64,000 nt of DNA from an uncultured Christensenella sp. (GTDB lineage Bacteria > Bacillota > Clostridia > Christensenellales > UBA1242): NCBI GenBank assembly GCA_964573405.1, contig CAZNJK010000003.1:3826-67825 (forward strand), given 5' to 3'. The position numbers were made by a program, and so were the translations under genes. Shown here piece by piece: positions 4,182-49,989 of the stretch (its first letter is position 1; each line of letters opens with the position of its first letter). The notes under the pieces were generated by a model. That model saw only the letters and a program-made list of their open reading frames with translations, was not told where the DNA came from and did not search any database.

Positions 4182-4317
4182 GATGTTGTCTTTTCTAAAT
4201 TTGTGATTTGTTAAACAAATTTTAGAACTTTCTTAATTTCTCTATTTTTTGAGCAAATGTTTATTTTATGCTATCTTTTCGCATCCTTAAAATCCGTGTT
4301 TTTACTTAAAACAAATA

Positions 4318-4331
4318 CGAACAAATGTTTG
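4318..4331. promoter_or_regulatory. LexA-type (Cheo/SOS) box CGAACAAATGTTTG
   Basis: Matches the Gram-positive consensus CGAAC-N4-GTTYG. Lies 20 nt upstream of the rarA -35. The same 14-mer occurs at 40000, and its near-complement at 29239. Confidence 0.55.
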
Positions 4332-7848: not shown

Positions 7849-7876
7849 AAAAAAATCACCCATAATATGAGTGATT
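7849..7876 (-). terminator. Intrinsic terminator after rnpB
   Basis: Minus strand reads aatcac-(11 nt)-gtgatt followed by TTTTTTT, immediately 3' of the RNase P RNA. Confidence 0.6.
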
Positions 7877-7877
7877 T

Positions 7878-15641: not shown

Positions 15642-16625
15642 TTAAACAATATATTTTTGATTGTGCAATTTGTCAGTATATTGCACTGGTTTTGGTGCCA
15701 TTACATTGTATGGGTCAAGGTAATAACGTTGGCCGGTCGCACTATAATAAGCGACCATTCCAAATGTTGAGTACATAAGTAGCGATACTGGGATTGTGAC
15801 AATAAGCCCTACACCATATGTAAAGACTCCGCCAAACACATTCAAAAATACCGAAGTAAGAATGATTGCAAAAGCATTGCCAAAAGTTTGACCAAAACGG
15901 CGTTTAACAATAATCATAGAGTCTTTCAATCCCGAGAAAACGCCTTTATTTCGCACCACAATGCTAGGAATCCAACCGCAGAAAAGGGTGTGTTTTAATG
16001 ACATCAATATGCAAAATCCAAAGAGAATAATAAATGGGGAAAGCACTATAAATGCGCCACCAAGCCTAAATAAGCGGAAAGAATAAAGAAGCAAATAATA
16101 TATTCCAAAATTAACTGGAACCAAAAGTAAGAAACTAGCAATTTGATAAAGCAAATTTTTCTTGAAACTTGACACAAACGAATTAGCATAATTGTGCTTT
16201 GTGTTGCTACTCATATAATAATACAAATTAACAGCGGTTGGCATTTGATAAAATTTAAAAACAACCGTACCAAGCACCATTATTACAAACCCCATTCCAA
16301 AAATTGATAGCATAATTTTTGAGATGTTGGAATTGATAATATCAACGAATTTAACCGACAAATCGCCAATTCTGATAATAAGGGCTTTTAGGTCAAGCGA
16401 GGAAATAAATGTTTGATAGACATCTGCAATTTTTTCAAAAAAATTAGCATTTATAAGCACTTGAACAACTGGCAAAGCCGTGACAAGGCACAATCCACCC
16501 ACCACAAGACCTGCGATTAAGATGTATAAAAGTATTTTCCAAATAAGATGGGCGTTGGAAAATAGCAATTTGAATGTATTTTTGTATAACATAAAAACCA
16601 ACCTTTTTAAGACATTATAAATCAT
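15642..16625 (-). CDS. Polytopic membrane protein (about 7-8 TM), unknown function
   Basis: Long hydrophobic segments throughout the 327 aa. No catalytic motif recognised. Confidence 0.6.
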   Translation of the reverse strand: MIYNVLKRLVFMLYKNTFKLLFSNAHLIWKILLYILIAGLVVGGLCLVTALPVVQVLINANFFEKIADVYQTFISSLDLKALIIRIGDLSVKFVDIINSNISKIMLSIFGMGFVIMVLGTVVFKFYQMPTAVNLYYYMSSNTKHNYANSFVSSFKKNLLYQIASFLLLVPVNFGIYYLLLYSFRLFRLGGAFIVLSPFIILFGFCILMSLKHTLFCGWIPSIVVRNKGVFSGLKDSMIIVKRRFGQTFGNAFAIILTSVFLNVFGGVFTYGVGLIVTIPVSLLMYSTFGMVAYYSATGQRYYLDPYNVMAPKPVQYTDKLHNQKYIV

Positions 16626-16742
16626 TTTTGTTATTTAATCAATAATTTTTTGTAAGTTAGTGACAATAAATAATGACTAATAATAAGTTTAATAATAAAA
16701 AGGGGCGTATTTTCTCACACCCCTTTAAATTTTAAGCAATCT

Positions 16743-17615
16743 TTAACTTCGTCTTATATCAACACAGTGTCTAACGGCTTTCTGGACTTCATTATCCCCT
16801 TGCACATTGTTAGTACCATCCACTTCGTCAGCACGCACTTCTTCCTCGGTGTCGCAATTTTTATGGCTGGTAAAACAATTTATGTCGTCACAATCGCAAT
16901 TCTCATCATTAATGTAGCCATTTTCAAAGTGTTCAGAACAATTAGGGCATTCAGATTCAATAATTTGAACTTTTTCAACATCTTGAAAATTATCCATTTT
17001 AATTGTTTCATTCGCACAATTCATTTCAACCTTTTCAATGTTGCTCAAACAATCTGGATTATTTCCAAATAAGGTCAAGATTTTCAAAACAACATCATTA
17101 ACAATCTGTTCTTTGATAGACGCGTCATCAATAGTAACACCACCAACATCTTTATTACAACCATCAATATTATCCATTAAATTGTTATCTTCAATAACAT
17201 CACAATATAAAACGTCTTGAAAATCATTCTCCGCACTTTTATTATTTTCAGTAAAAAATTCATTGACTTCAATACTGTCGATTTTTACATCCACTTCATC
17301 CGTAATTGATTCATCATCAATAATCTTTGCCACTTCAGTATCTTCAGCGATTGTAACCGATTTGTTATCTTCCGATATCGTAGTTTTATTGTCAACATTT
17401 TTTATTACATCTTTATTATCCATACTTTGTTTTGATGACTTTGAATCTTTTGTCACAATGCCAAGTACAACAAGCACACCGCATATCGCCATAATTACAT
17501 TTTCTATGGTCGAACTATCAATTGAAAAACCAAAAAGTTTTGCAACACTTTCCACCAAAATCACGATTGAACCACTAAGTGCAACCCAAAAAGCATAGGT
17601 TTTAATTTTTTTCAT
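16743..17615 (-). CDS. Holin-like N-terminal domain fused to a long acidic, Cys-rich C-terminal tail
   Basis: N-terminus MKKIKTYAFWVALSGSIVILVESVAKLFG...VIMAICGVLVVLGIV resembles small two-TM Firmicute phage holins. Residues ~60-290 are D/E/N-rich with CPNC and CDCDDINC...NCD motifs. GGAG RBS. Confidence 0.6.
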   Translation of the reverse strand: MKKIKTYAFWVALSGSIVILVESVAKLFGFSIDSSTIENVIMAICGVLVVLGIVTKDSKSSKQSMDNKDVIKNVDNKTTISEDNKSVTIAEDTEVAKIIDDESITDEVDVKIDSIEVNEFFTENNKSAENDFQDVLYCDVIEDNNLMDNIDGCNKDVGGVTIDDASIKEQIVNDVVLKILTLFGNNPDCLSNIEKVEMNCANETIKMDNFQDVEKVQIIESECPNCSEHFENGYINDENCDCDDINCFTSHKNCDTEEEVRADEVDGTNNVQGDNEVQKAVRHCVDIRRS

Positions 17616-17844
17616 TAGACTCCGACTTTTGAGTTGGCTTCATATTACCAATCTCTTCCTTTATGATTTCGACATCTTCTTTCACTTCGTTAATTATCTC
17701 AAGCGATTTGCCAAGACTGTCGATTGTTTGTTGATATTTTATTTCTCGCTCACGACTATCCTTAATTTGAAAGAATAATAGTAGCAAAAACAAGACTGCC
17801 CATATTCCATTGCTTAATGCTAAGTTAAGTATTTTCTCCCACAT
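17602..17844 (-). CDS. BhlA/UviB-family holin-like peptide
   Basis: 80 aa: LALSNGIWAVLFLLLLFFQIKDSREREIKYQQTIDSL, then a helical tail. Same layout as BhlA/UviB (one N-terminal TM, then K/E-rich coiled coil). Confidence 0.65.
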   Translation of the reverse strand: MWEKILNLALSNGIWAVLFLLLLFFQIKDSREREIKYQQTIDSLGKSLEIINEVKEDVEIIKEEIGNMKPTQKSESNEKN

Positions 17845-18430
17845 TTATATATCCTTTCAAGTCTTCACTCTCCGCCAAGACTTGTCCTTTTTTATCTTCT
17901 GGCAATGTTTCTAAAAACTGAGCAACAAGTTTTGACGCCCGCTCTCTTTTGTAATCACTCACTACGCTTTGGCTAAATCCCACAAAGTCAATTCCTTCGC
18001 TTAGCACATCGACCGAGTCGTACTGATCTCTAATCTCCCGCATTTGCTCTTGATACTTTGACTGGTCAGACGAAATAACATTTTCATACATTTTTTCTTT
18101 TTCTTTTAATGATTCCATCTCCACATTGATCTTGTCCAATTGTTCTTTCAATTCTACCGAACCCATAATATCAAAACGAGAATACTTTTCATTCAATATG
18201 CTATTAAGACTCTCCTTTTTAAAATTAAGCGAATCTCTCAACTTCTGAATGTCGGCAAGTTGAGTAGTTGCATTATCCACTTCTGCCGAATCATACACCT
18301 TCAAACCTGCTGAGTTCGTGCTAAGGATATTTATTTGACTTTTCAATTTTTCAAGCCCCTCTCTTATTTCATCATCTTCAATTATTTGTTTTGCCTTACA
18401 AGACAATTCTTCCGAAATTCTAAAATCCAT
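17825..18430 (-). CDS. Coiled-coil protein of the phage-like operon (201 aa)
   Basis: ORF 17825..18520; ATG at 18430 is preceded by GGAGGA. Strongly helical, charged sequence. Confidence 0.5.
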   Translation of the reverse strand: MDFRISEELSCKAKQIIEDDEIREGLEKLKSQINILSTNSAGLKVYDSAEVDNATTQLADIQKLRDSLNFKKESLNSILNEKYSRFDIMGSVELKEQLDKINVEMESLKEKEKMYENVISSDQSKYQEQMREIRDQYDSVDVLSEGIDFVGFSQSVVSDYKRERASKLVAQFLETLPEDKKGQVLAESEDLKGYINVGENT

Positions 18431-18488
18431 ATTTCCTCCATTCTTTAAAAATTCATTGTAATTTGTTCTTCTTATAATCATATTTAAA

Positions 18489-19619
18489 TTATAGTTTAAT
18501 TTGTTCAACTGAAAACCCACTCACCAAGTATAAAGTATTATCATAAATAAATGCATCATCAACATTAAGGTAATCACAAAAAGACATTCTGTAAGATAGC
18601 GTAAGCGAATTAAATTTTTCAACCCTTACGCCCTCTTCAAAAAGTTGTATTAGATAATTACCATTCTCTGTGTAGTAATTTGCAATATCTTTACACTTCG
18701 AATATTCTCTCGTACTCAACACATATCCTTCAGGATTCAAATACGACAAATACCAAATTTCATCCTTCGATTTTATCCAAAAATAATTAGTTGGGAAATC
18801 TGAACAAATTGACTTTACCTTGTCCACATTAATATAGTCTAGGTTCAATTTTTTTGTTAAAACCTCCGCCATATCACTATTAAAAGATTTCAAATACAAT
18901 CCCCCATTAATAACATATAAAACATTATAATAATGGTCTGCATCGTTAGATGTAAGTAAGCACATCGACTCTACACCATCCACATTAAAAGTTTTAGAAT
19001 TGCTATCATCTTTCAAAATATACATATTATCATAATACAACTTAACATTAGAAATTTTATCATTTTCTTCAATTTTAAAACCGACATTACAATCAAGGAA
19101 TTTGTCACTTTCATAATTATTTATGTTGCATATATTAGATGTTATTGACAATATGCCACCACTTTTTGACAATAAGTCATTTTTTATAAAGTTTATATTT
19201 TCATCACAAAAACTTAATTTTGATAATGTTTTTTCAAAACTTTCAATACATCCTTTCAATTTTAATTTAATTTTTATAGTAACATCATTCTCTGATTGGT
19301 ACACAATTTTAAGTACATTGTTTTCTTTTATGTAAGCATTTACCGATGTTGAGCAATATTGAGATACTATTTCTTCATATAGTTTTACATCATTTAAAAT
19401 CATACAAATATTTGCATTATTCGATACATTGATTTCCAATCCAAATTGGGCTATAGAATTTTCTTTTCCATTAAAAGATATTATTTTCTCTTCTTTAGTA
19501 GAAGAAATTTCATAACAAAAATTATATATCTTTTCATCTAATATTGTATTTGTATTTTCTTCATTGCTTCTTATAAGTTTTTGCGTTTTTGAAAATAAAT
19601 TATTTGATACATTACTCAT
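18489..19619 (-). CDS. Beta-rich structural protein of the phage-like operon (376 aa), unknown
   Basis: The ATG at 19619 overlaps the stop of the upstream gene (tATGAGTAA). N/Y/I-rich beta-strand-like composition. Confidence 0.5.
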   Translation of the reverse strand: MSNVSNNLFSKTQKLIRSNEENTNTILDEKIYNFCYEISSTKEEKIISFNGKENSIAQFGLEINVSNNANICMILNDVKLYEEIVSQYCSTSVNAYIKENNVLKIVYQSENDVTIKIKLKLKGCIESFEKTLSKLSFCDENINFIKNDLLSKSGGILSITSNICNINNYESDKFLDCNVGFKIEENDKISNVKLYYDNMYILKDDSNSKTFNVDGVESMCLLTSNDADHYYNVLYVINGGLYLKSFNSDMAEVLTKKLNLDYINVDKVKSICSDFPTNYFWIKSKDEIWYLSYLNPEGYVLSTREYSKCKDIANYYTENGNYLIQLFEEGVRVEKFNSLTLSYRMSFCDYLNVDDAFIYDNTLYLVSGFSVEQIKL

Positions 19620-21111
19620 AGACGCCAACCAAAAATTTAAAAGTTTCTATAGATGGATTTTCCGTCACACTAACTAGCCTAACAGAAAATTCTTGTGCTT
19701 GGATATTTGTTATAATCTTTTGTTCTTGCTCACTACCCGCAACATTAAATTCATAATTTCCATCGTTTGTAAAAATCGTAACTACTACATCTTCGCTAGA
19801 TTTTATATGAAAATTTCTGATGATTTTTTTGTTATATGGCTTAGAGAGATCAAACTTATTTGACTCCCAAATTTTCTTTGCGTATTCGTTTGAATTATAT
19901 TTCCCGGTTTTATCAATCACTCGCAATTTTTGACTAAGACTCCCCGTTAAAGCAAGCACCCTTTCAGAACAACCATCTTGGAATGGTAGTATTTTTCGAA
20001 TGCACAAATCGGGGCAAAAGTTAACTTCTTCAGAATATATATCATAAACAATCAAACAATTATTTTTGCCACTATCATAATTATCAACAACCCCGTCAGA
20101 ATAATTAAGTTTTGTAGCAAAATAATATTTGTTATCACTAAAACACGCCACACTGTTGTGTTTTCTTTTTCCATCGAAAAAATTCAAAAACTTAATATCA
20201 ACTTTATTTACTGTATTGCCATTAAAAATATATATTCCTTTCTCATCTGCAAAAATTATATTGTCGCCACCAATAACGATTGAATTCTCAATAATCTTTG
20301 AATTGCCCCTATACACATCTTCAAGTACAAGGTGTTTTTGACTAGAATATGTGACAATTCTATATATTCCATATTCACACACCACATAAAGATAATCATT
20401 ATAACTTACAAGTTTCAAAATTTTACCCGCCCTTGCTGAAACATTTATGGCTTGCATATTTGGAACACTGGCCGATAAATTAAGCGGATTTAAGTCATCA
20501 CCAAACAAGATTTTACTTCTGCCATCTTCGTCCAATACCACAAACATTTTGTTGTTGTAGTTACAAATATCATAGATATAAAAATCACTTGAAAATTCGT
20601 TAAGAAAATCAGTAGCGCCTTTGCATATATAATTAATTATCGTGCTATTATGTTTTGTAGTAACAATAAGATAATTCTTATCTTGATAAGAACAAGATAG
20701 CAATCTAAAAGAACAACCTTCCGTCAATGAACGAAATTCGTGATGCTGAATATCTCCGCTATCCAAAACAATAAAGCATATTTTATAATCACTGGTAACA
20801 AAAATCAGTTGTTTTTGTGGTGGACTATCGGTTGATTTTGTGCCAACGAAATATGTAAATGATAGTACCGTACCTAGCGACGCAACTTCGGGAACAATTG
20901 AATAATCTCCTTCACTAGTTAAGTACAATTTCAAATCATCTTCCCCATACGACTTCTTTAACATTCCATTTTCCACGCTGAAATTTGCGCACAATTTTGG
21001 AACATATGAATTCTTTTCATTGCTGGTATTGAATTGGCTCGAAAATTTCGAAAAATCTATTACTTTATAATCAATTTTTGGAATGACGTTTGAAGTATTT
21101 TTGTAAAACAT
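19612..21111 (-). CDS. Beta-propeller-like structural protein of the phage-like operon (499 aa); candidate tail/receptor-binding component
   Basis: The ATG at 21111 overlaps the upstream stop (TGATG) and follows GAAGGTGG. Recurrent ...YLYVV.EYGIYR..., ...IIFADEKGIYIFNG..., ...KYYFAT... blades. Confidence 0.5.
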   Translation of the reverse strand: MFYKNTSNVIPKIDYKVIDFSKFSSQFNTSNEKNSYVPKLCANFSVENGMLKKSYGEDDLKLYLTSEGDYSIVPEVASLGTVLSFTYFVGTKSTDSPPQKQLIFVTSDYKICFIVLDSGDIQHHEFRSLTEGCSFRLLSCSYQDKNYLIVTTKHNSTIINYICKGATDFLNEFSSDFYIYDICNYNNKMFVVLDEDGRSKILFGDDLNPLNLSASVPNMQAINVSARAGKILKLVSYNDYLYVVCEYGIYRIVTYSSQKHLVLEDVYRGNSKIIENSIVIGGDNIIFADEKGIYIFNGNTVNKVDIKFLNFFDGKRKHNSVACFSDNKYYFATKLNYSDGVVDNYDSGKNNCLIVYDIYSEEVNFCPDLCIRKILPFQDGCSERVLALTGSLSQKLRVIDKTGKYNSNEYAKKIWESNKFDLSKPYNKKIIRNFHIKSSEDVVVTIFTNDGNYEFNVAGSEQEQKIITNIQAQEFSVRLVSVTENPSIETFKFLVGVYE

Positions 21112-21668
21112 CAATACCACCTTCTTCTCTTAATTTTTGTGTTTCTTTGCGGTCTTAAACAACTTTGCAACTCTGATTTGAACTTTTCTTCCCACATTTT
21201 CGCTTCATCAAACACGCCTTTTGCATATAAGTATTCAGCCGTAACTCCATACACGAAAATTCGTTCATTAATCTTGGTTGGATAATCGCTAATTGCATCA
21301 TCATATGTTAAATCATCTGGGAAATATGTATACTTTATGACAATATCTCCCGCCTTTGTGACAATTCCGTCGCTTGTAAGTTGAAAATCAATACTAGTGC
21401 CAGTATTGGTCTTAATACTCACAATGTCAAAAATTGTTTTTGATGTGACACTAGAATATGGTATAACGCCCCTTATATTTCGCACTTTTGTCACTGCATA
21501 CAACTTTACATAATTTGTTGCGATGTTGCAATTTGTTAAATTAACGCAATCCACCAATAATTTCTTTTCATTTTCTTGTTGGGTAATTAACTCACCATCT
21601 ATTGCACCCGCCAATTCGTAATTATGGGTTAAATTCAACACCTTTTTTATTATATTTTTAACTAACAT
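21111..21668 (-). CDS. Phage-like operon protein (185 aa); position suggests a head completion/connector role
   Basis: ATG at 21668 is preceded by AAAGGAG. Third gene after the capsid-like gene. No family recognised. Confidence 0.45.
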   Translation of the reverse strand: MLVKNIIKKVLNLTHNYELAGAIDGELITQQENEKKLLVDCVNLTNCNIATNYVKLYAVTKVRNIRGVIPYSSVTSKTIFDIVSIKTNTGTSIDFQLTSDGIVTKAGDIVIKYTYFPDDLTYDDAISDYPTKINERIFVYGVTAEYLYAKGVFDEAKMWEEKFKSELQSCLRPQRNTKIKRRRWY

Positions 21669-21679
21669 CGTTTCTCCTT

Positions 21680-22051
21680 TTATAACCAATTTGACTTAAA
21701 TGTACAATTTAAGTTTTCATTATCTGATTTTGAATATTTTAAAATTTCTCTAATTTTGTAGTCGCTTATTTCTTTCGCTTTTTCAAATGCTCTTCTTTCA
21801 TTCCTTTCGTTTTCAACATCCAAATTTTTTATGATTTTGTCATAATTTTTCACATCCGTTGAGCACAACAACTCGATTGTTCGTGAATCCAATCGCTCAT
21901 ATGGAATTGTCAAACAATATGGATTTTTGTATTTTGAATTATGAATTTCAAACTTTTTAGAATTCAAATTAAACAAAACAAAATAATTTTCGTCAATTTC
22001 CTTAATTCTTTTGCAAATATCAAAAACATCGCTCTCAATTTTTATTTTCAT
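21680..22051 (-). CDS. Phage-like operon protein (123 aa), unknown
   Basis: Intact ORF downstream of the post-capsid hairpin, with a purine-rich RBS (aaaggaaaagg). Confidence 0.45.
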   Translation of the reverse strand: MKIKIESDVFDICKRIKEIDENYFVLFNLNSKKFEIHNSKYKNPYCLTIPYERLDSRTIELLCSTDVKNYDKIIKNLDVENERNERRAFEKAKEISDYKIREILKYSKSDNENLNCTFKSNWL

Positions 22052-22073
22052 TGCCTTTTCCTTTTTAAAATAA

Positions 22074-22095
22074 GGAGATGGAAAAACCCATCTCC
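22074..22095 (-). terminator. Hairpin (partial terminator/attenuator) immediately after the capsid-like gene
   Basis: Minus strand GGAGATGG-gtttt(t)-CCATCTCC followed by TTATTTT, located between the stop at 22103 and the next ATG at 22051. Confidence 0.5.
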
Positions 22096-22102
22096 ATCAT
22101 CA

Positions 22103-23284
22103 CTAAACCGTAATCCCTCTTAGGCGAGATTGTCCATTTGGTCGGCTACAAATTAAGTCAGCATATTTTACTAATGTTGCCGTATATACTGGATAATCGG
22201 CCTTTTGACTCAATACATTTCCGCTATCGTCGGTCATCCATTCCCAATCGCACATTTGGTGCAATGTAAATGTGTCGGTATCTAGCAAATACATATCCTT
22301 CTCATTTACGAATCTATCACTCACCATAGGAATGCCGTAGAAATCAAGTGCCTTAAATCCGTTACCCAAATCAATTGTCTGAATATTTCTCTTATCTGCA
22401 ATTAAAAGGCTTTGATATTTCCTTCTTACCGCCGAAGAGCAAGCAATATAGTTAATCTTAACATTACTACTTTCTTCCGCTTGGTCGATTTTCTCTAAAA
22501 TCTTAACGTCGGTCAAATCGCCCACATTTTCATATCCATTACCTTTCATAAACTTATAGTCTAATTTTTTAAGACCATAAAGGTAATTAATATCACCTAC
22601 AAATAGCGCATCAATACCTGTAATTTCGTTTTTATAACTTCCTTGGTTAACCAAGTAATATCCGCCATCTTCGGCATCTGTTAGAGTTACAGCTCTAGAA
22701 AGGGTAACGGTATTTTCTACTCTATCTACCGCTACGATTTCCAAAAATTCGCCACCGCTAACCGCACTATATGTTGTGCTATCATACACATCTACAATCA
22801 TACCTTCAGCCACGCGATTGCAATTGTCAACTGTCACAGTTTTGCCGTCACCACTTACATCTGAGATTTCGCAAATAAGGCCTCTGCCATCACCATACAA
22901 CATCCTACTAAGATTGAATGCGCTCGCTCTAATAAGCCCTTCCATTTCGTCGTTAAGCAAATTTACAAATGCCCCCGCACTGTTTTGGCTCGCACGCACA
23001 GCCTTGTCACTTATCTCAATTCTGCCGTATAAGTTCTTTAGATCGGTTGTGAATGTTACATACGAGTTATTGGATGTTCTTGGAAGTTCTCCTGTTTCGC
23101 TTGTCGCAGTAATGCCACCATTTACACCATACGGAGCAAGCACCTTTATTTCTTTGCCATACACTCCTTGAGTGGTCTTCTTGATTTTTGCAAATAATGG
23201 ATTGGTTGCAACATTAAGCAAGTTGTCAAGCACATCTAAATACACCGACTTCAACGCATTATTTGCAGTTGTTAAATTTATCAT
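22103..23284 (-). CDS. Major capsid-like protein
   Basis: 393 aa, directly after portal- and scaffold-like genes. N-terminal ...KIKKTTQGVYGKEIKV... and ...RMLYGDGRGLI..., and the C-terminal ...YTATLVKYADLICSRPNGQSRLRGI, resemble phage coat proteins as I recall them. Confidence 0.7.
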   Translation of the reverse strand: MINLTTANNALKSVYLDVLDNLLNVATNPLFAKIKKTTQGVYGKEIKVLAPYGVNGGITATSETGELPRTSNNSYVTFTTDLKNLYGRIEISDKAVRASQNSAGAFVNLLNDEMEGLIRASAFNLSRMLYGDGRGLICEISDVSGDGKTVTVDNCNRVAEGMIVDVYDSTTYSAVSGGEFLEIVAVDRVENTVTLSRAVTLTDAEDGGYYLVNQGSYKNEITGIDALFVGDINYLYGLKKLDYKFMKGNGYENVGDLTDVKILEKIDQAEESSNVKINYIACSSAVRRKYQSLLIADKRNIQTIDLGNGFKALDFYGIPMVSDRFVNEKDMYLLDTDTFTLHQMCDWEWMTDDSGNVLSQKADYPVYTATLVKYADLICSRPNGQSRLRGITV

Positions 23285-23293
23285 AATTTTCTC

Positions 23294-23920
23294 CTATTTA
23301 AAAATTTTCTTTGCCATCTCCCCCGCTTCAAATACCGTAACAGGCTTCTTATATGAAGACGCTATAGTACTGCCACCTTTTGAAGTCATTAGATTTGGCG
23401 AAAGGCTTACTTTATTTAAATAATCCTTAACAATCTTTTCCTTATCGCTATCACTTAGCAAATTAAGTGCAAATTCCTTGTTGTTAAGCCGATTATTTAA
23501 CATTTCGTTTTCCTTTTCTAAGACCTTCCCGTATGCAATTTCTAGGGAATTTTGGGCAGTGCTCAAAACTTTATCGCTAGAAATCATTTCGGAAATCTCT
23601 CGTGAAAACTCTTTTGCTTTAGGATGATTCATTAAAAATTCATCAACCTTTTCTTGCCAGTCACCACTTTCGTATGGCGGTACACCATGTGCATTGTCGC
23701 CGTCCTTATTTTTCATAAGTTCGCTTAGCGCCTGACATTTTTTGGTAAATTCAGACTGAAGACTATCGTAAGCCTTTATAAGTTCGTCCACAGTCTTGAA
23801 TTTGCCATTTATAGGAGAGCCGTCTTGATTGCCATTACTTAATTTATCAAAACCCACGTCTGTGGCGGAAGTCGTATAATCAGTAGACGGTTGTTCTCCA
23901 TTACTAAATTTTTCTAACAT
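23294..23920 (-). CDS. Capsid scaffolding-like protein
   Basis: 208 aa, helical and acidic. GKFKTVDELIKAYDSLQSEFTKK motif is typical of Firmicute phage scaffolds. Located between the portal-like and capsid-like genes. Confidence 0.6.
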   Translation of the reverse strand: MLEKFSNGEQPSTDYTTSATDVGFDKLSNGNQDGSPINGKFKTVDELIKAYDSLQSEFTKKCQALSELMKNKDGDNAHGVPPYESGDWQEKVDEFLMNHPKAKEFSREISEMISSDKVLSTAQNSLEIAYGKVLEKENEMLNNRLNNKEFALNLLSDSDKEKIVKDYLNKVSLSPNLMTSKGGSTIASSYKKPVTVFEAGEMAKKIFK

Positions 23921-23922
23921 TT

Positions 23923-25794
23923 TTATTCTCCTAAATCTTTAAGTATTTCTTTATGCTTTTTAATATGTTCTATCATTATTTGTTTTTGTGCTTCTGTTCC
24001 CATCTTCTCAAAGTCATTGCCAAGAATAAATGCCGTGTGTTGAGTGATGTGAATGTTGTGGTCATCTATATCGGACGGGTCACTAACCGATGCCGATTTT
24101 AGCAAATTATAGTTCTCTCGTTCCGCTTGTTTTACTTGCAATGTTTGTAAATCTTGGCTATTGTTCCACGTGCCAAATCCAAACTGCTCCAAAACCTTTT
24201 GACGGGTAGAATTACTCATAACCCCGTTCTCATCATTAAATAGCCCCGCATTCAAGATCTCAAGTATCATACTACGCTTTTGGGCGAGAGTCTGACTAAC
24301 TTCATTCTCCGTTTCAAATACAACATCTTCGCTATTTATTTGGGAATTGTTCCAATAAAACATTTCTATTTCGCCATTCTCTCCCACCAGCCTTGATGTA
24401 TGTGGCAACACTGCAAATTGTTTGTAAAGTCTTAAAATGTGTCTTCCTACTTCCTTTATTGCTCGCTTAATTTCGTCTTCACTAGAAGTGATTCTGGACT
24501 CATCTTGTTCTATAAGTAGTTGCAGTGCCACTCCACTTATATTTCCAGTATTTATGCTAGAAGATGTAAGCAAATCGGACACTCCGCTGATGTTAATGAA
24601 CTCATCAAGAAGCATTTCTTCTTCCTTTTCAAAACTCGTAGGAATCGTGTCGCCGGTTAACATTTTTGGGGCGGAACTGCCTTGTCTATACACCAAAATT
24701 TTACCTGGGGACAAGCCTTCTTCTTCCAAATTCTCAATATCCACCGAGCCGTCTTCCACCGTCAAAACGCCTAAAGAAAGCCTATTTAAAAACTCATGCT
24801 TGCGATTTTTGACTGCATTAAACGATCTTTGGACAGGGATAAGCCTTTCAATAATCGACATCCCCCAAAAACTATTTGGAATGCTAATTGAACATTGTTT
24901 TACAAAAGGGAAACCGCGTTCCAAATTCACTGTATTTATGTAAGGAAGTTCGCCTATGTATATGAGTTTGTTTCCCGCAACAATTGTCAACTTGCCATTG
25001 GGGTTGTCCACACTTGGGCATTCATACTTTTCAATGACAACCGCTTGATTTGGCTTGTTGTATTTGAATACGCTTTTGGAAGTGGCAGAATATCCCAATC
25101 CTCCAATATTTGGTACATTGCAAATATCCATTGTTTCAAGTTCGCACCCGTCAAGGTCAACGCCATACATATCCTTTATAGCGTCCACCGAATATGCTTT
25201 TGCGTGGATTATGCTACGCATATCGGATATATTTTCAACACTGGAATTGTCCGGATATATTTCGAATGGCGACACCACGCTTATGTCGACTTCACCTTCA
25301 TACATATTCTGTCCGACTTCATTTTTGCCTATAACTCGTCCTTTTAGATTGTTCCAGCCAATTTTGTAAAATGCAGTGCCACATATCTCGCTCCAAAGCG
25401 TTGCGTCATTAATAATTTTGCTAAGATTTAAGTCATAACTAACGCATTTCAGTAGGTTTCGACTCACTTTTGCACAACCTATGTCATTTGGGTCATCAGA
25501 AAACGGCACGACTGTAAGGATGGGTCTAATTTTATTAAGTTTTGAAATTCTCAAATCAACAATCGGTGCGATGTGATTGAACACTTCTTTTTCTTGCCAA
25601 AAATATTGCTTCATATCATCAACAATCTCATTAATTCCGTTGATAAAGCAGTATTGATTGCCCACCAAAAAGTTGATGTTGAGTTGCCAAGTTGTTTCCA
25701 TTTTTTTTCGTTCGTATTGTCGATTTTTAAAATCAGCAATCACATCTTCGACTATTTTTTTCTCAATTTCTTCGGTTATTTTATCTTTTTCCAT
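23923..25794 (-). CDS. Portal-like protein
   Basis: 623 aa, positioned right after the terminase genes and before the scaffold/capsid-like genes. Size and order are typical. Assignment is positional. Confidence 0.65.
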   Translation of the reverse strand: MEKDKITEEIEKKIVEDVIADFKNRQYERKKMETTWQLNINFLVGNQYCFINGINEIVDDMKQYFWQEKEVFNHIAPIVDLRISKLNKIRPILTVVPFSDDPNDIGCAKVSRNLLKCVSYDLNLSKIINDATLWSEICGTAFYKIGWNNLKGRVIGKNEVGQNMYEGEVDISVVSPFEIYPDNSSVENISDMRSIIHAKAYSVDAIKDMYGVDLDGCELETMDICNVPNIGGLGYSATSKSVFKYNKPNQAVVIEKYECPSVDNPNGKLTIVAGNKLIYIGELPYINTVNLERGFPFVKQCSISIPNSFWGMSIIERLIPVQRSFNAVKNRKHEFLNRLSLGVLTVEDGSVDIENLEEEGLSPGKILVYRQGSSAPKMLTGDTIPTSFEKEEEMLLDEFINISGVSDLLTSSSINTGNISGVALQLLIEQDESRITSSEDEIKRAIKEVGRHILRLYKQFAVLPHTSRLVGENGEIEMFYWNNSQINSEDVVFETENEVSQTLAQKRSMILEILNAGLFNDENGVMSNSTRQKVLEQFGFGTWNNSQDLQTLQVKQAERENYNLLKSASVSDPSDIDDHNIHITQHTAFILGNDFEKMGTEAQKQIMIEHIKKHKEILKDLGE

Positions 25795-25805
25795 TTGTAC
25801 TCCTT

Positions 25806-25997
25806 TTAAAATTTATTTAATATGTTGCGGGGACTTTTAGGGGCTATATTGCACGATATCTCGTAGTTAATTTGCGACAAACAATCCTTACACGAATGAA
25901 TGCGGACTGTATTTTTTAGTTTTTTTAGCACTATGTAATACTCGCTCCTAGCACCACAAAAATTACACTTATTTTTCCTTTCTTCCTTTTGAATCAT
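25806..25997 (-). CDS. Small zinc-ribbon protein (63 aa)
   Basis: ATG at 25997 after AGGAGA. CNFCG ... CKDC pairs. Confidence 0.4.
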   Translation of the reverse strand: MIQKEERKNKCNFCGARSEYYIVLKKLKNTVRIHSCKDCLSQINYEISCNIAPKSPRNILNKF

Positions 25998-26289
25998 CTT
26001 TACATTTCTCCTGTGCTTCATTTAGCATTGTTAAAAGTTTTTCTCGCTCTTTTTCAAGTTCTTTTAATTCATATCCTTTATACATATCTTCGTCGTTTAA
26101 ATTCTGTTTTTCAATAATCATCTCTATTGCTTTCAATTCTGGAGGATAATATTTCGAATTTAATTTCCTTTTGACTAGGGTGAGTTCGTCATTCACCATG
26201 GAATACTCTTCCACGACTTCGTTTTGTGAAAATCCTATTGCTCTATTAAACAATGCCTCGTCTATTTTTTTGAAATCTTCTTTCTTCAT
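25969..26289 (-). CDS. Small-terminase-like protein (106 aa), located downstream of TerL
   Basis: NRAIGFSQNEVVEEY...KYYPPELKAIEMI resembles the RA.GY..EE....K..PPD..A..F.L pattern of one Firmicute phage small-terminase family. The ATG overlaps the TerL stop (ATGA). Confidence 0.45.
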   Translation of the reverse strand: MKKEDFKKIDEALFNRAIGFSQNEVVEEYSMVNDELTLVKRKLNSKYYPPELKAIEMIIEKQNLNDEDMYKGYELKELEKEREKLLTMLNEAQEKCKDDSKGRKEK

Positions 26290-27734
26290 CTGTACACACC
26301 ATTATGTCTTGAATTCATAAGTTTTTTGTACATCTTTTCTCTATCTTTTTGCACGATTGTCTTAGGCTGGTCCTTTATGGTGTTTTCGGGGCGTGACATT
26401 ATGTAATATCTTAATTCATCTAGACAATGGTCATCTTTCTTTAGTGGTGCGTCGCCATTGCCCCAAAAATAACTTTTAATCTCACTTATCAAATTTACAC
26501 AATTTTTAAAGATAAATAATCGTGCTTGGCCATTGGCATTTTTTAAATAACTCTTTACTCGATTTATGCCCGTAAATAGGTCTTTATTTACTTTTGGATT
26601 AACGAGAATATTGTAGTCATAAAATAGTTCGGTCACACTCTTTTCTCCCGACAAAGTCTTCTGATTTGCCGCGCTATCTATAAGTGCCTCAATGCAACCG
26701 TTGTAAGAGCGTTTCCAATTAAGCCTATCGGAAATTTGTTTTATCTTATTTGCGTGATACTCCACAGACTTTCCCGCTTCAAAATGTTCCGCCACCACAT
26801 ACACATTGTTGTCGAAATCGACCGCATACCAATGTGCCGAAAGCGGATTATTGAGCCCTGGGTCAATGCTAATGTTGTCTTGCCACTCTTTCGGAATGTC
26901 GAATGGCTCTATTACATTCACATTCTCGTCAAACTCACTATACACCATCCCACCATTCCCCACGAAATTGCCGTAGCATCGACTTTCCAGTTCGTCCGCA
27001 CTCAAACTCCCCATAAACGACTCTATTTCTTTTTCATTTAAAAAGGGGTTATCGTGCCACGATATGTGCTCGTGCCATATTTCGGGATCATTATTTTCAT
27101 TGAGATATATTAGGTTATACACCCACGACAATCCCTTAAGCGGGGTCATCGTCGCAAATATATCACCGCATTTATCCAGCACCCGCATTTTGCACTCAAG
27201 ATAGATGTCTAGCGGTGGCTCTTCATCGAACCACACAAAATCTAGGCTAGTACCTTGGAATTTTTCTCGGCCTTGGTCACAACTTTTGAATCCTATCTTA
27301 CTCAATCCGCCAAATACATTTTTTATAGTAATAAAGTCAATCACCCCCATATCCATTGCACTTTTCTTACCGCTAAGCATTACAATGTCTACAATCCAAT
27401 CCTTATTAAGATAATGCAATATTTTGTTTTGTGCGACATCTCTTTGCACTTGCGTGCTCAGTGACACCACCCAACACTCCACATTCGGCTTGTTCTCCCT
27501 ATATGGGTGTATCCCCCTCGCCAACCAGATGGTTTCAACCGCCCCGCACTCGGTTTTGCCACTTCTATTTCCCCCAAACACCCACCTATTTTTCTTTGTA
27601 CATTTATGGAACGTAAGTTGTTTTAAATGAACCTTATCGCCCGTATTGTACTCAAATAGCCGATTATTGTTCTTTTTCCTAGCAATCTCGTTTTGCACAA
27701 GCATTAATCGTTTTTTGATTTCGCTAACATTCAT
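26286..27734 (-). CDS. Terminase large subunit
   Basis: Walker A FGGNRSGKTECG, Walker B LDFVWFDEEPP. C-terminal RNase-H-like nuclease motifs (IDPGLNNP..., DSAANQ, DHCLDELRY). AAAGGAG RBS. Confidence 0.88.
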   Translation of the reverse strand: MNVSEIKKRLMLVQNEIARKKNNNRLFEYNTGDKVHLKQLTFHKCTKKNRWVFGGNRSGKTECGAVETIWLARGIHPYRENKPNVECWVVSLSTQVQRDVAQNKILHYLNKDWIVDIVMLSGKKSAMDMGVIDFITIKNVFGGLSKIGFKSCDQGREKFQGTSLDFVWFDEEPPLDIYLECKMRVLDKCGDIFATMTPLKGLSWVYNLIYLNENNDPEIWHEHISWHDNPFLNEKEIESFMGSLSADELESRCYGNFVGNGGMVYSEFDENVNVIEPFDIPKEWQDNISIDPGLNNPLSAHWYAVDFDNNVYVVAEHFEAGKSVEYHANKIKQISDRLNWKRSYNGCIEALIDSAANQKTLSGEKSVTELFYDYNILVNPKVNKDLFTGINRVKSYLKNANGQARLFIFKNCVNLISEIKSYFWGNGDAPLKKDDHCLDELRYYIMSRPENTIKDQPKTIVQKDREKMYKKLMNSRHNGVYR

Positions 27735-27828
27735 TTTTTCTCCTTTTATATATATTTAGATATTTTTCGACGTTTTTTAAAGATGTATAAATTTCCACTT
27801 TCGCAATGAATCAGTATATAATGAAAAT

Positions 27829-28557
27829 ATGATTAAGATTTTGTTAATTTTTGTGGTAATATTTAGCAGTTTTGAATTCACATATTGCGATAACAATTAT
27901 GCTCGGATTACAAATAGCCACACATATTTATATAGAACCGCATCAAAAGACAGTGATGTAAAAAACATAATATGCGTTATGGAAAACACATATTATGTTG
28001 AAATTTTATTAATCTATGATGAGGACTTTTATAAAGTAAATTATAATGGCGTAAGCGGATATGTGCTTAGGCAAGATGTGAAAAGAGTAAAAGATGAGCC
28101 TAGCCACCCATATCCCGATAATGTAGAGATGGTCACAATCAACAACAACTCATACTTAAGGTCATCTCCCCAAAAAGCAAATAACAACCTTACAATAGTT
28201 CCGTCAAACTGCTCAAAACTACATTATATAGGCAAAACATATGGCGAACAAGTTGATGATTTTAGGCAAAATTTGTGGTACTATGTGGAATATCAAGGGG
28301 TATATGGATACATCTATAGCGAATACATTAGGTCTATTTCAAGCATATATCCCAATGTAGAAGAATTAAGTTATGTAAGCGATAACGACTTTGACGACAT
28401 CATAAACCCGCTATCAAATTCAACCTGCATACTAATTATTGTAGGGATGTCAATTCCTATGCTAATCGTAATGTATATGATTTACAAAAAACCAAAACAC
28501 CGAAAAAGCAAATTTAAGGAAAGGGTTATTGTAAAAGAATATGACGAAAAACTTTAG
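27829..28557 (+). CDS. Secreted/anchored protein: signal peptide, two SH3b-like domains, C-terminal TM and basic tail
   Basis: YKVNYNGVSGYVLRQDVK and WYYVEYQGVYGYIYSEYI are SH3_3-type strands. TM is CILIIVGMSIPMLIVMYMIY, followed by KKPKHRKSK. No RBS; a TATAAT lies 6 nt before the ATG, so possibly leaderless. Confidence 0.6.
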   Translation: MIKILLIFVVIFSSFEFTYCDNNYARITNSHTYLYRTASKDSDVKNIICVMENTYYVEILLIYDEDFYKVNYNGVSGYVLRQDVKRVKDEPSHPYPDNVEMVTINNNSYLRSSPQKANNNLTIVPSNCSKLHYIGKTYGEQVDDFRQNLWYYVEYQGVYGYIYSEYIRSISSIYPNVEELSYVSDNDFDDIINPLSNSTCILIIVGMSIPMLIVMYMIYKKPKHRKSKFKERVIVKEYDEKL

Positions 28558-29093
28558 CCCGCATTAAACTCGTTTAGTACCGACTTGAAAAATCTTTGCT
28601 TGTTGTACTGGCTAATTCTAAATTCTTTACTATCTTCCAATTGCTGGTTGTGATTGTATAGATTTTTAAGCCAATATTCGCCACTGAACATCATTTCAAG
28701 TTTTTCCGCATTGAAGCCTTGCAATAACAAATTTTTTGCAAAACACTGCAACGCTTCATTTTTCTTCCTAAAAAATGTTCTAATACTGATGTGCATAAGG
28801 TCCGCAATGTCTTCGTTTTTTGCATTATCAATATAACTCAATGCTAAGATTTGCCTTTGATGAAGGGGCAACATATTTAGCGTGTCGTCTACAATAACTT
28901 TCAAATTAATCAAATTAACTTTTCTCTCAGTTAATTGCATTATCCTATTTGCACAATCATAGCAAGTATTGTATCGACCATTGCTATAAAACGCTGAATT
29001 GATGCTCTTTTTATATACTAAGTCATCAATCGAATTAGATAACGCCTCCAAATATTTATATACAGACAATATTGTTTTACTCCAAGTTTTCAT
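28554..29093 (-). CDS. ArpU/RinA-like (sigma region-4-like) late-gene activator candidate
   Basis: 179 aa. LPLHQRQILALSYIDNAKNEDIADLMHISIRTFFRKKNEAL is a region-4-type HTH. Size and position (upstream of the terminase) match phage late activators. GGGAGG RBS. Confidence 0.55.
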   Translation of the reverse strand: MKTWSKTILSVYKYLEALSNSIDDLVYKKSINSAFYSNGRYNTCYDCANRIMQLTERKVNLINLKVIVDDTLNMLPLHQRQILALSYIDNAKNEDIADLMHISIRTFFRKKNEALQCFAKNLLLQGFNAEKLEMMFSGEYWLKNLYNHNQQLEDSKEFRISQYNKQRFFKSVLNEFNAG

Positions 29094-29119: not shown

Positions 29120-29149
29120 ATTATAATGTACTATTTTTCCAATTGTCAA
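29120..29149 (-). promoter_or_regulatory. Consensus sigma-A-type promoter of the activator-like gene
   Basis: Minus strand TTGACA (29149-29144) - 18 nt - TATAAT (29125-29120). Confidence 0.6.
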
Positions 29150-29222
29150 AGGCTTGTGTCATATTTTTGTAAAAATTGTTTATTTTTGTACAAATTTGTC
29201 AAATTTTGTCAATTTTTGTCAA
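29143..29222. repeat. Phased TTGTCAA (TTGACAA on minus) direct repeats
   Basis: TTGTCAA at 29143, 29196, 29206 and 29216 (the last three exactly 10 bp apart). TTTGTAAAA/TTTGTACAAA variants lie between them. Confidence 0.6.
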
Positions 29223-29238
29223 AAACACATCTTTTTCT

Positions 29239-29252
29239 AGAACATTTGTTCG
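29239..29252. promoter_or_regulatory. LexA-type box AGAACATTTGTTCG (complement CGAACAAATGTTCT)
   Basis: Matches CGAAC-N4-GTTC. Located in the divergent intergenic region between the activator-like gene and the 876-aa surface protein gene. Confidence 0.55.
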
Positions 29253-29529
29253 ATTATACCCCCTATTTAATGACAACAGTATGTCACAATTTAAAAAAAA
29301 ATTAAAAAAATTAAAAAATCACTAAAACATATCATTGAGAAGCCTTTAAATGGAATATTTAAAAATTTACATTCAAACAATATAACTTTTTTAACTAAAA
29401 ATTAAATTTGATTGTTATTTATTTGTTTTTTTATTTTTAATTTTGATATAATATATTATATTATGTAAATACATATTACAAATAGCCCATTAGCTACATA
29501 AAAAATTTTAAAAGGTGTATTAGTTACTT

Positions 29530-39999: not shown

Positions 40000-40013
40000 C
40001 GAACAAATGTTTG
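40000..40013. promoter_or_regulatory. LexA-type box CGAACAAATGTTTG overlapping a -35 element
   Basis: Identical 14-mer to the 4318 site. Its last 3 nt are the first 3 nt of the TTGATA -35 hexamer. Confidence 0.6.
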
Positions 40014-40039
40014 ATATTTTGTTTTTTGTGTGATACAAT
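40011..40039 (+). promoter_or_regulatory. Promoter TTGATA - 17 nt - (TGa)TACAAT, ending 7 nt before the ATG at 40047
   Basis: Counted directly. No Shine-Dalgarno lies between the -10 and the ATG, so the transcript would be leaderless. Confidence 0.55.
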
Positions 40040-40046
40040 ACAATTA

Positions 40047-40361
40047 ATGAGAATAGATGTTGAACTAGGAATAATTATCACACTACTTAATAAAGGGAAA
40101 ACAACCTACAGAGAACTAGCATCGAAATTTGATATGAGTATTCGGTCAATCTGTAGGTATGTTTCTGTGCTCGATACAGTCGGAATCCCAATAGTAACCA
40201 AGACTGGAAAAAATGGCGGGGTCGAAATTTTAAACACTTTTAGACTCAATAATATGTTTTTCACAGTTCAAGAAAAGATGACACTAATTACCGCTTGCAG
40301 CCACATCAACAATCCAGAAATGCGAAAAATAATAACCGACAAATTATTACTTATAAAGTAG
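40047..40361 (+). CDS. Small winged-HTH (HTH_11/DeoR-N-like) regulator, 104 aa
   Basis: IIITLLNKGKTTYRELASKFDMSIRSICRYVSVLDTVGIPIVTKTGKNGG is the HTH_11 pattern. The track ORF starts at a TTG inside the operator; the ATG at 40047 is more plausible. Confidence 0.6.
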   Translation: MRIDVELGIIITLLNKGKTTYRELASKFDMSIRSICRYVSVLDTVGIPIVTKTGKNGGVEILNTFRLNNMFFTVQEKMTLITACSHINNPEMRKIITDKLLLIK

Positions 40362-47720: not shown

Positions 47721-48983
47721 TTAATCTGTATATTCTAATTCGTAGCCGTTAAGAATTACCGTGTCGCCACTTTGCAATCCCTTTTCTTTCAATGCATCTA
47801 TGATACCTTCTTCCTTAATTTGTCGTTGAAAATACGCATTAGATGTATAGTCTTCCAAATTTACGCGTCGGATAATCTCTTCTATAAGCGTGCCATCAAC
47901 CGAATATGTGTGGTTATCCAATTTCGTAATTGTATAAGACCTATCAACTTGGTCAATATCTCGCTCTTCCACTTCAATCTTTTCTGGAATAGGAATTTGT
48001 TTAAGATTTTTTATTACAGCCAAAATAAGTTCGTTGATTCCGCTATGGCTTACCGCACTTATTTCATATACTTCAGTGTCCTTCGGTAATTTGCTTTTGA
48101 AATCGTCTATAATTTGTCTATCGGTGACCAAATCAATCTTATTTAAAGCCACTATCTGCTTAATTTTGCCAACCTTATCGCTGTATTTTTCAAGTTCGTT
48201 GTTAATGACCACATAGTCATTGTATGGGTCACGGCCTTCACTCGCTGAAATATCAACCACATGAATAAGCAACCTTGTCCTTTCTATATGTCTTAAAAAG
48301 TCAAGCCCTAGCCCTACGCCTTCACTCGCTCCGCTTATTAGCCCCGGGATGTCAGCCATTACAAACGACTCGTCATAACCCGTAACAACCCCAATATTTG
48401 GCGCTAGCGTGGTGAAATGATAATTCGCTATTTTTGGCTTAGCATTGCTCACACTCGAAAGTAGCGTACTTTTGCCCACGTTGGGGAAACCTACTAGCCC
48501 AACATCAGCAATTGTTTTTAGTTCCAATTGAAACTCAAAAGGCTTTGTTTTTACCCCAAGTTCGCTATATTTTGGAGCCTGCCTAGTAGGGGTAGCAAAT
48601 TTTGCGTTGCCACGACCACCCATACCACCTTTCAACAAAACTTCTTCGTCGTCAAGGTTGTACATATCTGCTAGCACTTTGCCGGTTTCCACATTTTTAA
48701 TTACGGTGCCCTTTGGGACATAAATGATGGTATCTTTCCCACTTTTCCCAAAGCATTTGCTACTTTGCCCCGACTGACCGTCTTCGGCAAAAAACTTCTT
48801 CTTAAAGCGGAATTCTTCTAGATTGCTCACTTTATTTGTAACCCTAAAAATTATATTGCCACCCTTTCCACCGTCTCCGCCATCAGGACCGCCATTAGGA
48901 ACAAACATCTCTCGCCTAAACGATATTTTTCCATCTCCGCCGTTGCCAGCCTTACATATAATCTTAACCTTATCTAAAACCAT
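47721..48983 (-). CDS. obg: GTPase Obg/CgtA
   Basis: Gly-rich Obg fold (GGDGGKGGNIIF, GGMGGRGN). G-domain GFPNVGKST, DIPGLI, NKID. C-terminal OCT domain. Confidence 0.95.
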   Translation of the reverse strand: MVLDKVKIICKAGNGGDGKISFRREMFVPNGGPDGGDGGKGGNIIFRVTNKVSNLEEFRFKKKFFAEDGQSGQSSKCFGKSGKDTIIYVPKGTVIKNVETGKVLADMYNLDDEEVLLKGGMGGRGNAKFATPTRQAPKYSELGVKTKPFEFQLELKTIADVGLVGFPNVGKSTLLSSVSNAKPKIANYHFTTLAPNIGVVTGYDESFVMADIPGLISGASEGVGLGLDFLRHIERTRLLIHVVDISASEGRDPYNDYVVINNELEKYSDKVGKIKQIVALNKIDLVTDRQIIDDFKSKLPKDTEVYEISAVSHSGINELILAVIKNLKQIPIPEKIEVEERDIDQVDRSYTITKLDNHTYSVDGTLIEEIIRRVNLEDYTSNAYFQRQIKEEGIIDALKEKGLQSGDTVILNGYELEYTD

Positions 48984-49905: not shown

Positions 49906-49989
49906 AGATTATCTCCTTATCCCGAACGATTATTCTAACTATTTCATAATATTAATAATAAATGATATTTGTTAAAAAGGAGACACTAT

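Follow-up and report, generated by a model that had tools for sequence, protein, structure and literature searches.

The region examined here, a stretch of 64,000 nucleotides from an uncultured Christensenella sp. (GenBank assembly GCA_964573405.1, contig CAZNJK010000003.1, positions 3,826 to 67,825; termed the window below), contains a cluster of phage-derived capsid, packaging and lysis genes preceded by a gene for a small activator-like protein, and it raises the question of what could switch such a cluster on. The host DNA is low in GC (about 35%) and belongs to a spore-forming Firmicute. An earlier note on this sequence had proposed a 14-nt palindrome at 29239-29252, in the intergenic region ahead of the activator gene, as a binding site for the SOS repressor LexA. 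The analysis reported here indicates that the palindrome is probably an operator for the host LexA, situated at a distal promoter (Pd) of the activator gene; an activator of the sigma-70 region 4 type would be derepressed by DNA damage at this site and would gate the capsid cluster.

A LexA-type box adjoins an invariant -10 element

Positions 29239-29252 hold AGAACATTTGTTCG, the reverse complement of which, CGAACAAATGTTCT, is the reading in the direction of the activator. Its core, GAAC-N4-GTTC, is perfect, and there is one flank mismatch against the SOS box CGAAC-N4-GTTCG, in agreement with the fit claimed in the earlier note. The near-identity that it claimed with boxes at 4318 and 40000 also holds: these sister boxes, at 4318-4331 and 40000-40013, are both CGAACAAATGTTTG, are identical at 12 of 14 positions to the minus-strand reading of the activator box, and have a run of 19 nt in common (CGAACAAATGTTTGATATT). 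All three boxes are intergenic and contain the same AAAT spacer. A scan of the window for a LexA-like box with a five-nucleotide spacer (N5), in place of the four-nucleotide one (N4), found none. Within the window the enrichment of boxes with at most one mismatch is only marginal (three against 0.84 expected, with three or more in 5 of 100 shuffles), and relaxing the match to two mismatches yielded 16 boxes where 14.2 were expected, i.e., no enrichment.

Read towards the activator, the control region is composed of the following elements in this order, after which come a ribosome-binding site and the ATG at 29093.

29271..29286, no strand: inverted repeat TGACA-N6-TGTCA, 12 nt upstream of the distal TATAAT and at the expected place of a -35; its GACA and GTTG.C columns are invariant
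29253..29258, minus strand: predicted -10 element TATAAT of Pd, abutting the operator and invariant in 14 aligned lineages
29239..29252, minus strand: predicted LexA-type operator
29198..29223, minus strand: three direct repeats TTGACA(A), period 10 bp, lying between the operator and the proximal promoter (Pp)
29183..29195, no strand: palindrome TTTGTACAAA(A), in a nearly invariant alignment block
29160..29174, minus strand: element TTTTACAAAAATATG(G/A)CA, just upstream of the proximal -35 and kept in distant relatives that lack the box
29120..29149, minus strand: Pp, TTGACA-18-TATAAT, with its -35 at 29149-29144, its -10 at 29125-29120 and 12 of 12 consensus positions

The earlier note had placed the box about 90 nt upstream of the -35 of the activator gene. 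The distance is correct, the edge of the box being 90 nt from the -35 at 29149-29144, but the geometry is not that of a remote site only, since the box adjoins the distal TATAAT at 29253-29258. It appears to cover the start region of a second, distal promoter that points at the activator.

This arrangement is old. In the protein collection 55 homologues of the activator were found, and 58 species-level genomes encode a relative; the genomes that bear it are nearly all from uncultured gut Clostridia, with labels that include Christensenella, Christensenellales and Caccovivens. An orthologous box is found at the same position in the window and in the related loci L001-L013, L016-L018, L021, L023, L056, L061 and L063, which amount to about 12 distinct lineages. 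It lies 0-1 nt after TATAAT, on the side of the activator, in the window and in all of these loci other than L056 and L063, where the box is CGAACATATGTTTG and is preceded by TATTAT. The sequence of the box is CGAACAAATGTTCT in the window, L001-L003 and L010-L011; CGAACAAGTGTTCT in L004-L006; CGAACATAAGTTCT in L007-L009, L012-L013 and L018; CGAACAGATGTTCT in L016-L017; CGAACAAACGTTCT in L021; and AGAACAAATGTTTG in L023 and L061. Over the lineages the site is given as CGAACAnnnGTTCT in the activator direction. In an alignment of 14 lineages with a mean column identity of 58%, the TATAAT is invariant (columns T73-T78) and the columns of the box are among the most conserved, while the intergenic flanks have diverged across the lineages that keep it. 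The orthologous site accounts for 20 of the 30 boxes with at most one mismatch in 1.17 Mb of fetched related DNA.

The box is one of several conserved elements in the control region. The arms of the inverted repeat co-vary (GGACA...TGTCC in L007 and L012), the window contains no further copy of it, and it is probably an operator for another factor. The TTTGTACAAA palindrome likewise has no equivalent elsewhere in the window; it, the TTTTACAAAAATATG(G/A)CA element and Pp are kept family-wide, relatives without the box included, and the TTGAC of the Pp -35 is invariant throughout. The TTGACA repeats vary in number: L004, L007, L012, L016 and L017 have one or two, some of them degenerate, and L010 and L021 have none. 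LexA was described in the earlier note as the only visible input linking DNA damage to the cluster. That claim falls, because the inverted repeat, TTTGTACAAA and TTTTACAAAAATATG(G/A)CA are further conserved candidate operators and point to other regulators.

No structured leader RNA was evident in the control region (fold z-score -0.36, not significant), nor did an Rfam scan place any family there; within the window it matched RNase P only. Two other promoter types were considered and rejected. A sigma-54 promoter, TGGCAC-N5-TTTGAC, at Pp is not tenable, as conservation of the GG is lacking (the window has TGACAC) and the spacing deviates by one, and sigma-H or sporulation-sigma patterns did not fit the distal promoter by eye.

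The motif matches LexA operators of other Firmicutes

The C. difficile recA operator, which is bound by purified LexA in surface plasmon resonance, is AGAACAAATGTTTG, and the Clostridial consensus takes the forms GAACnnnnGTTT and GAACnnnnGTTC (PMC4234289). The orthologous 14-mer of L023 and L061 is identical to this recA operator, and the window's box has the 11-mer GAACAAATGTT in common with it. An exact-match scan of metagenome contigs with the window's 19-mer returned 40 loci, none of them on a contig of the window's clade. In other Firmicutes the 19-mer was found directly upstream of lexA (TIGR00498, 239 bits), of ruvC (equivalog model), of a Y-family polymerase gene and of a radical-SAM DNA-repair gene. 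Both of the arrangements seen in the window recur among these loci, i.e., the box over a TTGATA -35 and the box right after a -10. The ruvC promoters have a -10 directly upstream of the box, as at the activator, and the lexA promoter of L091 and L103 has the 19-mer in the same overlap with the -35 as the window's box at 40000. These observations identify the 19-mer as a bona fide SOS operator in other Firmicutes.

Closer relatives were also informative. In a sister subclade (L014, L024, L025, L027, L029, L030, L050 and L051) a LexA equivalog (158 bits; cut-off 110.95) is encoded 0.7-2 kb upstream of the activator, with a small zinc-ribbon open reading frame (ORF) and a tRNA-Leu gene in between. 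The lexA loci of other related low-GC metagenome-assembled genomes (MAGs), L114-L115, L116 and L117, were included as well; the lexA promoters of L114, L116 and L117 contain boxes of the form (C/T)AAACA(AA/TT)TGTT(C/T) over the -10 or the -35, which in L117 is TAAACATTTGTTTG over the -35. A tblastn search with LexA found no lexA in the window, and recA is likewise absent from it; used as a query, the LexA of L014 gave 941 matches, none on known contigs of the window's clade. The exact sequence of the window's activator matched no existing record. Taken together, the comparisons lend good, though not complete, support to the N4 boxes as LexA operators in this organism.

The activator is a sigma region 4 protein encoded next to a domesticated phage-derived cluster

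28554..29093, minus strand: activator gene, 179 aa, sigma-70 region 4 / DUF1492 (ArpU/RinA-like) by Pfam, PHROG and structure model
27829..28557, plus strand: SH3b-domain gene, 242 aa, secreted with a C-terminal membrane anchor; convergent, between the activator and terL, and in every syntenic locus
15642..27734, minus strand: capsid, packaging and lysis cluster, the presumed target of the activator, with the same gene order and flanks in relatives
26286-27734, minus strand: terL
23923-25794, minus strand: P22-like portal gene
22103-23284, minus strand: major head protein gene
16743-17615, minus strand: holin-domain ORF

The activator matches PF08281 (34.6 bits; cut-off 25.7), PF07374 (DUF1492; 24.4 bits, cut-off 21.5) and PHROG families 36 and 248, which are families of transcriptional regulators or activators. 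In its AlphaFold2 model (pLDDT 81) the N-terminal part forms two long helices, and residues about 67-125 superimpose on sigma region 4 domains in Foldseek (TM to target 0.73-0.85, rmsd 1.1-1.9 A). The matches are to region 4 only, with none to Sigma70_r2. The score against TIGR01637 (phage_arpU) is 27.4 bits, under the cut-off of 43.1; the protein seems to be like ArpU and RinA in kind, yet is not a certified member of the family. Searches of GenBank phages and IMG/VR returned no homologue. The gene had been called activator-like in the earlier note, and a sigma-70 region 4 / DUF1492 protein encoded upstream of terL is what was found; together with the convergent SH3 gene it precedes terL in every syntenic locus. 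On its other flank is a conserved divergent gene (29530-32160), the product of which is, like the SH3b protein, secreted and anchored in the membrane at its C terminus; a part as receptor, in immunity or in lysis control is conceivable for the two. A comparison of Pp with the region upstream of terL disclosed no convincing common motif that would be a candidate for activator binding.

The cluster also holds several unassigned genes, the last gene encoding 327 aa. Its ORFs include no detectable integrase, replication gene or Cro/CI-type repressor, as the earlier note had said of the repressor; no tape-measure gene was recognised in it, and the window contains no tRNA gene. At least nine species-level lineages retain the order murG-parE-parC-deacetylase-ssb-876aa-activator-SH3-terL...-RNase J-...-rarA, and the element is fixed between ssb/parC and RNase J, its far end being at RNase J in the relatives too. 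TerL is 95, 85, 76, 71 and 70% identical to its counterparts in relatives, where ParC of the same genomes is 98, 87, 73, 69 and 59% identical. The portal and head proteins diverge much like TerL and ParC, and the cluster as a whole has kept pace with parC and parE. Against GenBank phage terminases, the identity of TerL does not exceed about 30%. Because TerL and ParC have diverged together, and because of the distance from GenBank phages and IMG/VR, the cluster is best described as an old phage-derived module, domesticated and passed on vertically, and not as what is left of a recent prophage. It had earlier been called phage-like; phage-derived it is, but an ordinary defective prophage it is not, since it is vertically inherited at a fixed locus.

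In gene content the cluster is similar to a gene transfer agent (GTA) or to a PBSX-like particle module, and the whole element at 15642-29093, also present in L001-L023, L118 and L119, is a candidate GTA-like domesticated element. The more distant subclade of L014, L025 and L015 is organised differently: in L014/L025 (10001-15307) and L015 all that is found together, next to tRNA-Leu and lexA, is the activator, the convergent gene, terL and a gene of 789 aa. The other structural genes must be elsewhere or lost there, and the element could be split over several loci like RcGTA and FpGTA.

Proposed mechanism

In the undamaged cell, LexA bound over the start region at 29239-29252 would block Pd. 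Upon DNA damage, RecA-stimulated self-cleavage of LexA would free Pd, and the activator would be made from the Pd transcript, the leader of which (about 150 nt) would run through Pp. The activator would then switch on the adjacent terL-portal-capsid-holin cluster. Pp and the conserved elements upstream of it probably constitute a second layer of control, either repression by another factor or positive autoregulation, and the outcome would be a damage-triggered, self-reinforcing switch.

A more far-reaching reading is put forward tentatively, as possible and not as probable: the box would be the SOS trigger of a new podovirus-derived GTA-like family, fixed in an order-level group of uncultured, Christensenellales-like gut Clostridia, in which DNA damage, that from antibiotics included, leads to cleavage of LexA, Pd fires, the activator locks itself on via Pp, and a subpopulation of cells makes capsids that package host DNA and then lyses.

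Evidence against LexA control and alternative explanations

Several observations weigh against damage-induced control of the activator through Pd. There is no recognisable -35 at 16-18 nt from the distal TATAAT, and a promoter scan of the window does not call Pd, which may be weak or activator-dependent, with the inverted repeat in place of a -35. Pp, with its full consensus, would make LexA control of Pd irrelevant unless it were silenced by other means. About 45 more distant relatives of the activator (27-44% identical) lack the box, and in L019, L020 and L022 its left half-site has decayed and its right half is duplicated (ATGTTCGATAATGTTCG). Neither a lexA gene of the window's clade nor any recA was present in the fetched loci. 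The lexA promoters of the sister subclade contain solely an AGAAC-N5-GTTCT palindrome and no N4 box, and those of L114 and L116 have such a palindrome in addition to CAAACAAATGTTCT over the -10. The N5 palindromes lie 8-11 nt downstream of the -10, at the following positions.

L014 8679-8691; L024 2105; L027 6621; L029 7833; L030 7893; L050 7416; L051 6888; L114 about 5964-5982; L116 about 4960-4975: N5 palindrome AGAAC-N5-GTTCT at lexA promoters

They could be LexA operators of altered spacing, sites of a second regulator, or hairpins of the 5' leader, and the occurrence of N4 and N5 palindromes side by side does not appear to settle the spacing preference of LexA in this group. Another N5 'box', on the downstream side of lexA in the subclade of L014, was considered as an operator and rejected, as it belongs to an intrinsic terminator. 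The sister box at rarA is not conserved upstream of rarA in L118, L119 and L120; in L118 and L119 both the canonical box and a degenerate second one are absent. Since these orthologues, on contigs that bear the element, lack the box, it gives no regulon support. L118 and L119 come from the same genomes as L010 and L021 and keep the activator box, which is therefore older and more constrained than the box at rarA; the SOS link of rarA is recent and lineage-specific.

If LexA bound the box and merely trimmed a minor promoter, decisive control could be exerted at Pp, by factors acting on TTTGTACAAA and TTTTACAAAAATATGNCA or by the activator itself, and damage would not be the main trigger. Such an arrangement would accommodate the perfect consensus of Pp, the family-wide retention of Pp and its upstream elements (in the roughly 45 box-less relatives as well), the lack of a -35 at Pd, and the persistence of the element in L019, L020 and L022 despite their half-decayed box. 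It is nonetheless considered unlikely: the box and TATAAT are among the most conserved intergenic columns in about 12 lineages, which speaks for selection on the module, and a silent, decorative promoter would not be expected to remain invariant. The palindrome might instead be the operator of another regulator that recognises GAAC/GTTC, such as a LexA paralogue or an S24-type mobile-element repressor, and not of the housekeeping LexA. LexA-like S24 proteins do adjoin mobile or phage-like modules in L114 and L116, the N5 palindromes at the promoters of these proteins indicate that sites in the group are diverse, and the lack of conservation of the rarA box would fit. However, a tblastn search with LexA found no such regulator in the cluster or the window, the spacing is the canonical N4 in a window that has no N5 box, and the sister 19-mer serves as an operator of lexA, ruvC and dinB-type genes in other Firmicutes, so that this explanation seems quite improbable.

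The box could also belong to the gene on its other side, as the earlier note had allowed. This gene (29530-32160, divergent from the activator) encodes a fast-evolving surface protein of 876 aa, secreted and with a C-terminal membrane anchor; the two genes share the intergenic region, and a palindrome by itself points neither way. The abutting TATAAT, however, reads towards the activator and is ATTATA in the other direction. The divergent gene has its own conserved extended -10, TGATATAAT at 29444-29452, 195 nt from the box, with equivalents in L004 and L010. The spacing from box to gene varies from 196 to 278 nt, and the 876-aa protein (27-44% identity) evolves much faster than the box. Regulation of this gene in place of the activator is accordingly a very improbable explanation. 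As for a palindrome without function, an estimated 0.7 perfect GAAC-N4-GTTC cores would be expected per 64 kb at this base composition, and the enrichment of boxes in the window is, as noted, marginal. A chance match is nevertheless contradicted already, and can be regarded as excluded, because about 12 lineages with diverged flanks keep the box at this position beside an invariant -10 and because 20 of the 30 near-perfect boxes in the related DNA are this same site. Host LexA acting at Pd thus remains the reading that we consider probable, with LexA as one input among others.

Other sites in the window and at lexA loci

4318..4331, plus strand: sister box CGAACAAATGTTTG, 21 nt upstream of the -35 of the rarA/mgsA promoter
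4250-4263: degenerate second box TGAGCAAATGTTTA in the rarA/mgsA promoter region
40000..40013, plus strand: sister box CGAACAAATGTTTG, overlapping the -35 (TTGATA, 40011-40016) of the promoter of an HTH_11 gene
40047-40361: small HTH_11 gene, 104 aa, downstream of murG
7876-8208, minus strand: bacterial RNase P class A RNA gene (Rfam RF00010, 245.9 bits)

The position of the box at 40000 over a -35 suggests that the HTH_11 gene may encode an SOS-controlled regulator. HTH_11 proteins are also encoded near lexA in L114 and L116; homology of the window's protein to these was considered and rejected, the similarity being at the level of the domain only. A weak box-like sequence with two mismatches, CGAACGATTATTCT at 49923-49936, lies between the divergent genes nth (endonuclease III, 48983-49624) and a cysteine desulfurase gene (49969-51108).

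In L114 (6001-12600) lexA and a zinc-ribbon ORF of 62-65 aa are followed by genes for HTH_11 and Sigma70_r4_2 proteins, a MobL relaxase and a type IV secretion system coupling protein; in L116 (5001-10597) lexA and the zinc-ribbon ORF, again of 62-65 aa, are followed by HNH, SNF2 helicase and primase genes. The DNA that follows lexA seems to be an insertion hotspot for mobile or phage-like modules.

Implications

LexA control of the activator offers a testable answer, for this lineage, to the question of how a GTA-like element is switched on: by DNA damage, and thus by SOS-inducing fluoroquinolones, by mitomycin C and possibly by metronidazole. If it is correct, exposure to antibiotics would be tied to the formation of particles, to lysis and perhaps to gene transfer in commensals that are abundant but uncultured. 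The combination of the inverted repeat, TATAAT and GAAC-N4-GTTC upstream of a sigma region 4 gene next to terL would also provide a sequence marker for SOS-wired domesticated elements in MAGs. Were the tentative GTA-trigger reading to hold, the site would be the first direct link from LexA to the activator of a GTA-like element in Gram-positive gut commensals.

Comparison with known systems

The box has the form of the Firmicute and Clostridial LexA (DinR, 'Cheo box') operators, GAAC-N4-GTT(C/T) with an A/T-rich spacer, and like them it is located over promoter elements. It differs in that the gene controlled would be the activator of a phage-derived cluster and not a repair gene, and in that related lexA promoters here also contain GAAC-N5-GTTC.

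The closest parallel in layout is the uviA-bcn (BCN5) region of plasmid pIP404 from C. perfringens, in which two promoters and a LexA site precede the gene for a sigma-like activator of a bacteriocin and lysis module inducible by ultraviolet light or mitomycin (PMC4459074). UviA is a full group-5 (TcdR-family) sigma factor and is plasmid-borne, whereas the activator described here has region 4 only and is chromosomal; the uviA circuit controls a bacteriocin, whereas the cluster here consists of capsid and packaging genes. Dupuy and colleagues are said to have reported in 2005 that one uviA promoter is controlled by LexA and the other is dependent on UviA.

In phage GIL01 of B. thuringiensis, host LexA bound at SOS boxes in the early promoter replaces a CI-type repressor (PMC4551915, PMC6182141). 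Both GIL01 and the element in the window are Gram-positive phage-derived elements without a CI-type repressor of their own. GIL01, however, is an autonomous linear-plasmid prophage with a co-repressor, gp7, and a LexA-like activator of late genes, gp6; the element described here is chromosomally fixed, has no evident gp7-like partner, and has an activator of the sigma region 4 type.

Among GTAs and related particles, FpGTA of Faecalibacterium (PMC12946183), PBSX of B. subtilis and RcGTA with GafA are comparable in that the cluster is a head, packaging and lysis module of about 13.5 kb with a P22-like portal. GTA-like packaging has been shown in Faecalibacterium, with events also reported in Christensenellaceae MAGs, and is reported to be common among gut Clostridia; the study does not mention LexA or describe how the GTA is switched on (PMC12946183). 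Links between LexA and GTAs have been made in Rhodobacter, indirectly via cckA, and predicted in D. shibae (PMC6473078). The likeness of the present element to GTAs extends to its lack of integrase, replication and repressor genes, its fixed locus and its divergence in step with host genes. Its sigma-like activator may be compared with Xpf and GafA. To our knowledge, a LexA operator directly at the promoter of the activator has not been described for these systems.

ArpU and RinA, activators of phage late genes, are likewise small sigma-70 region 4 helix-turn-helix proteins encoded upstream of terminase and packaging genes. The activator described here differs from them in falling under the TIGR01637 cut-off and in having no homologue in GenBank phages or IMG/VR. 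We know of no ArpU/RinA-type activator in known phages with a LexA box at its own promoter, induction there proceeding via cleavage of a CI-type repressor. Accessory modules for killing or lysis that LexA controls directly are familiar from colicins, UviA/BCN5, GIL01, CTXphi and the tum gene of phage 186. The regulatory logic proposed here, an SOS repressor gating the activator of a lysis module, is therefore already known; the host lineage and the element are new.

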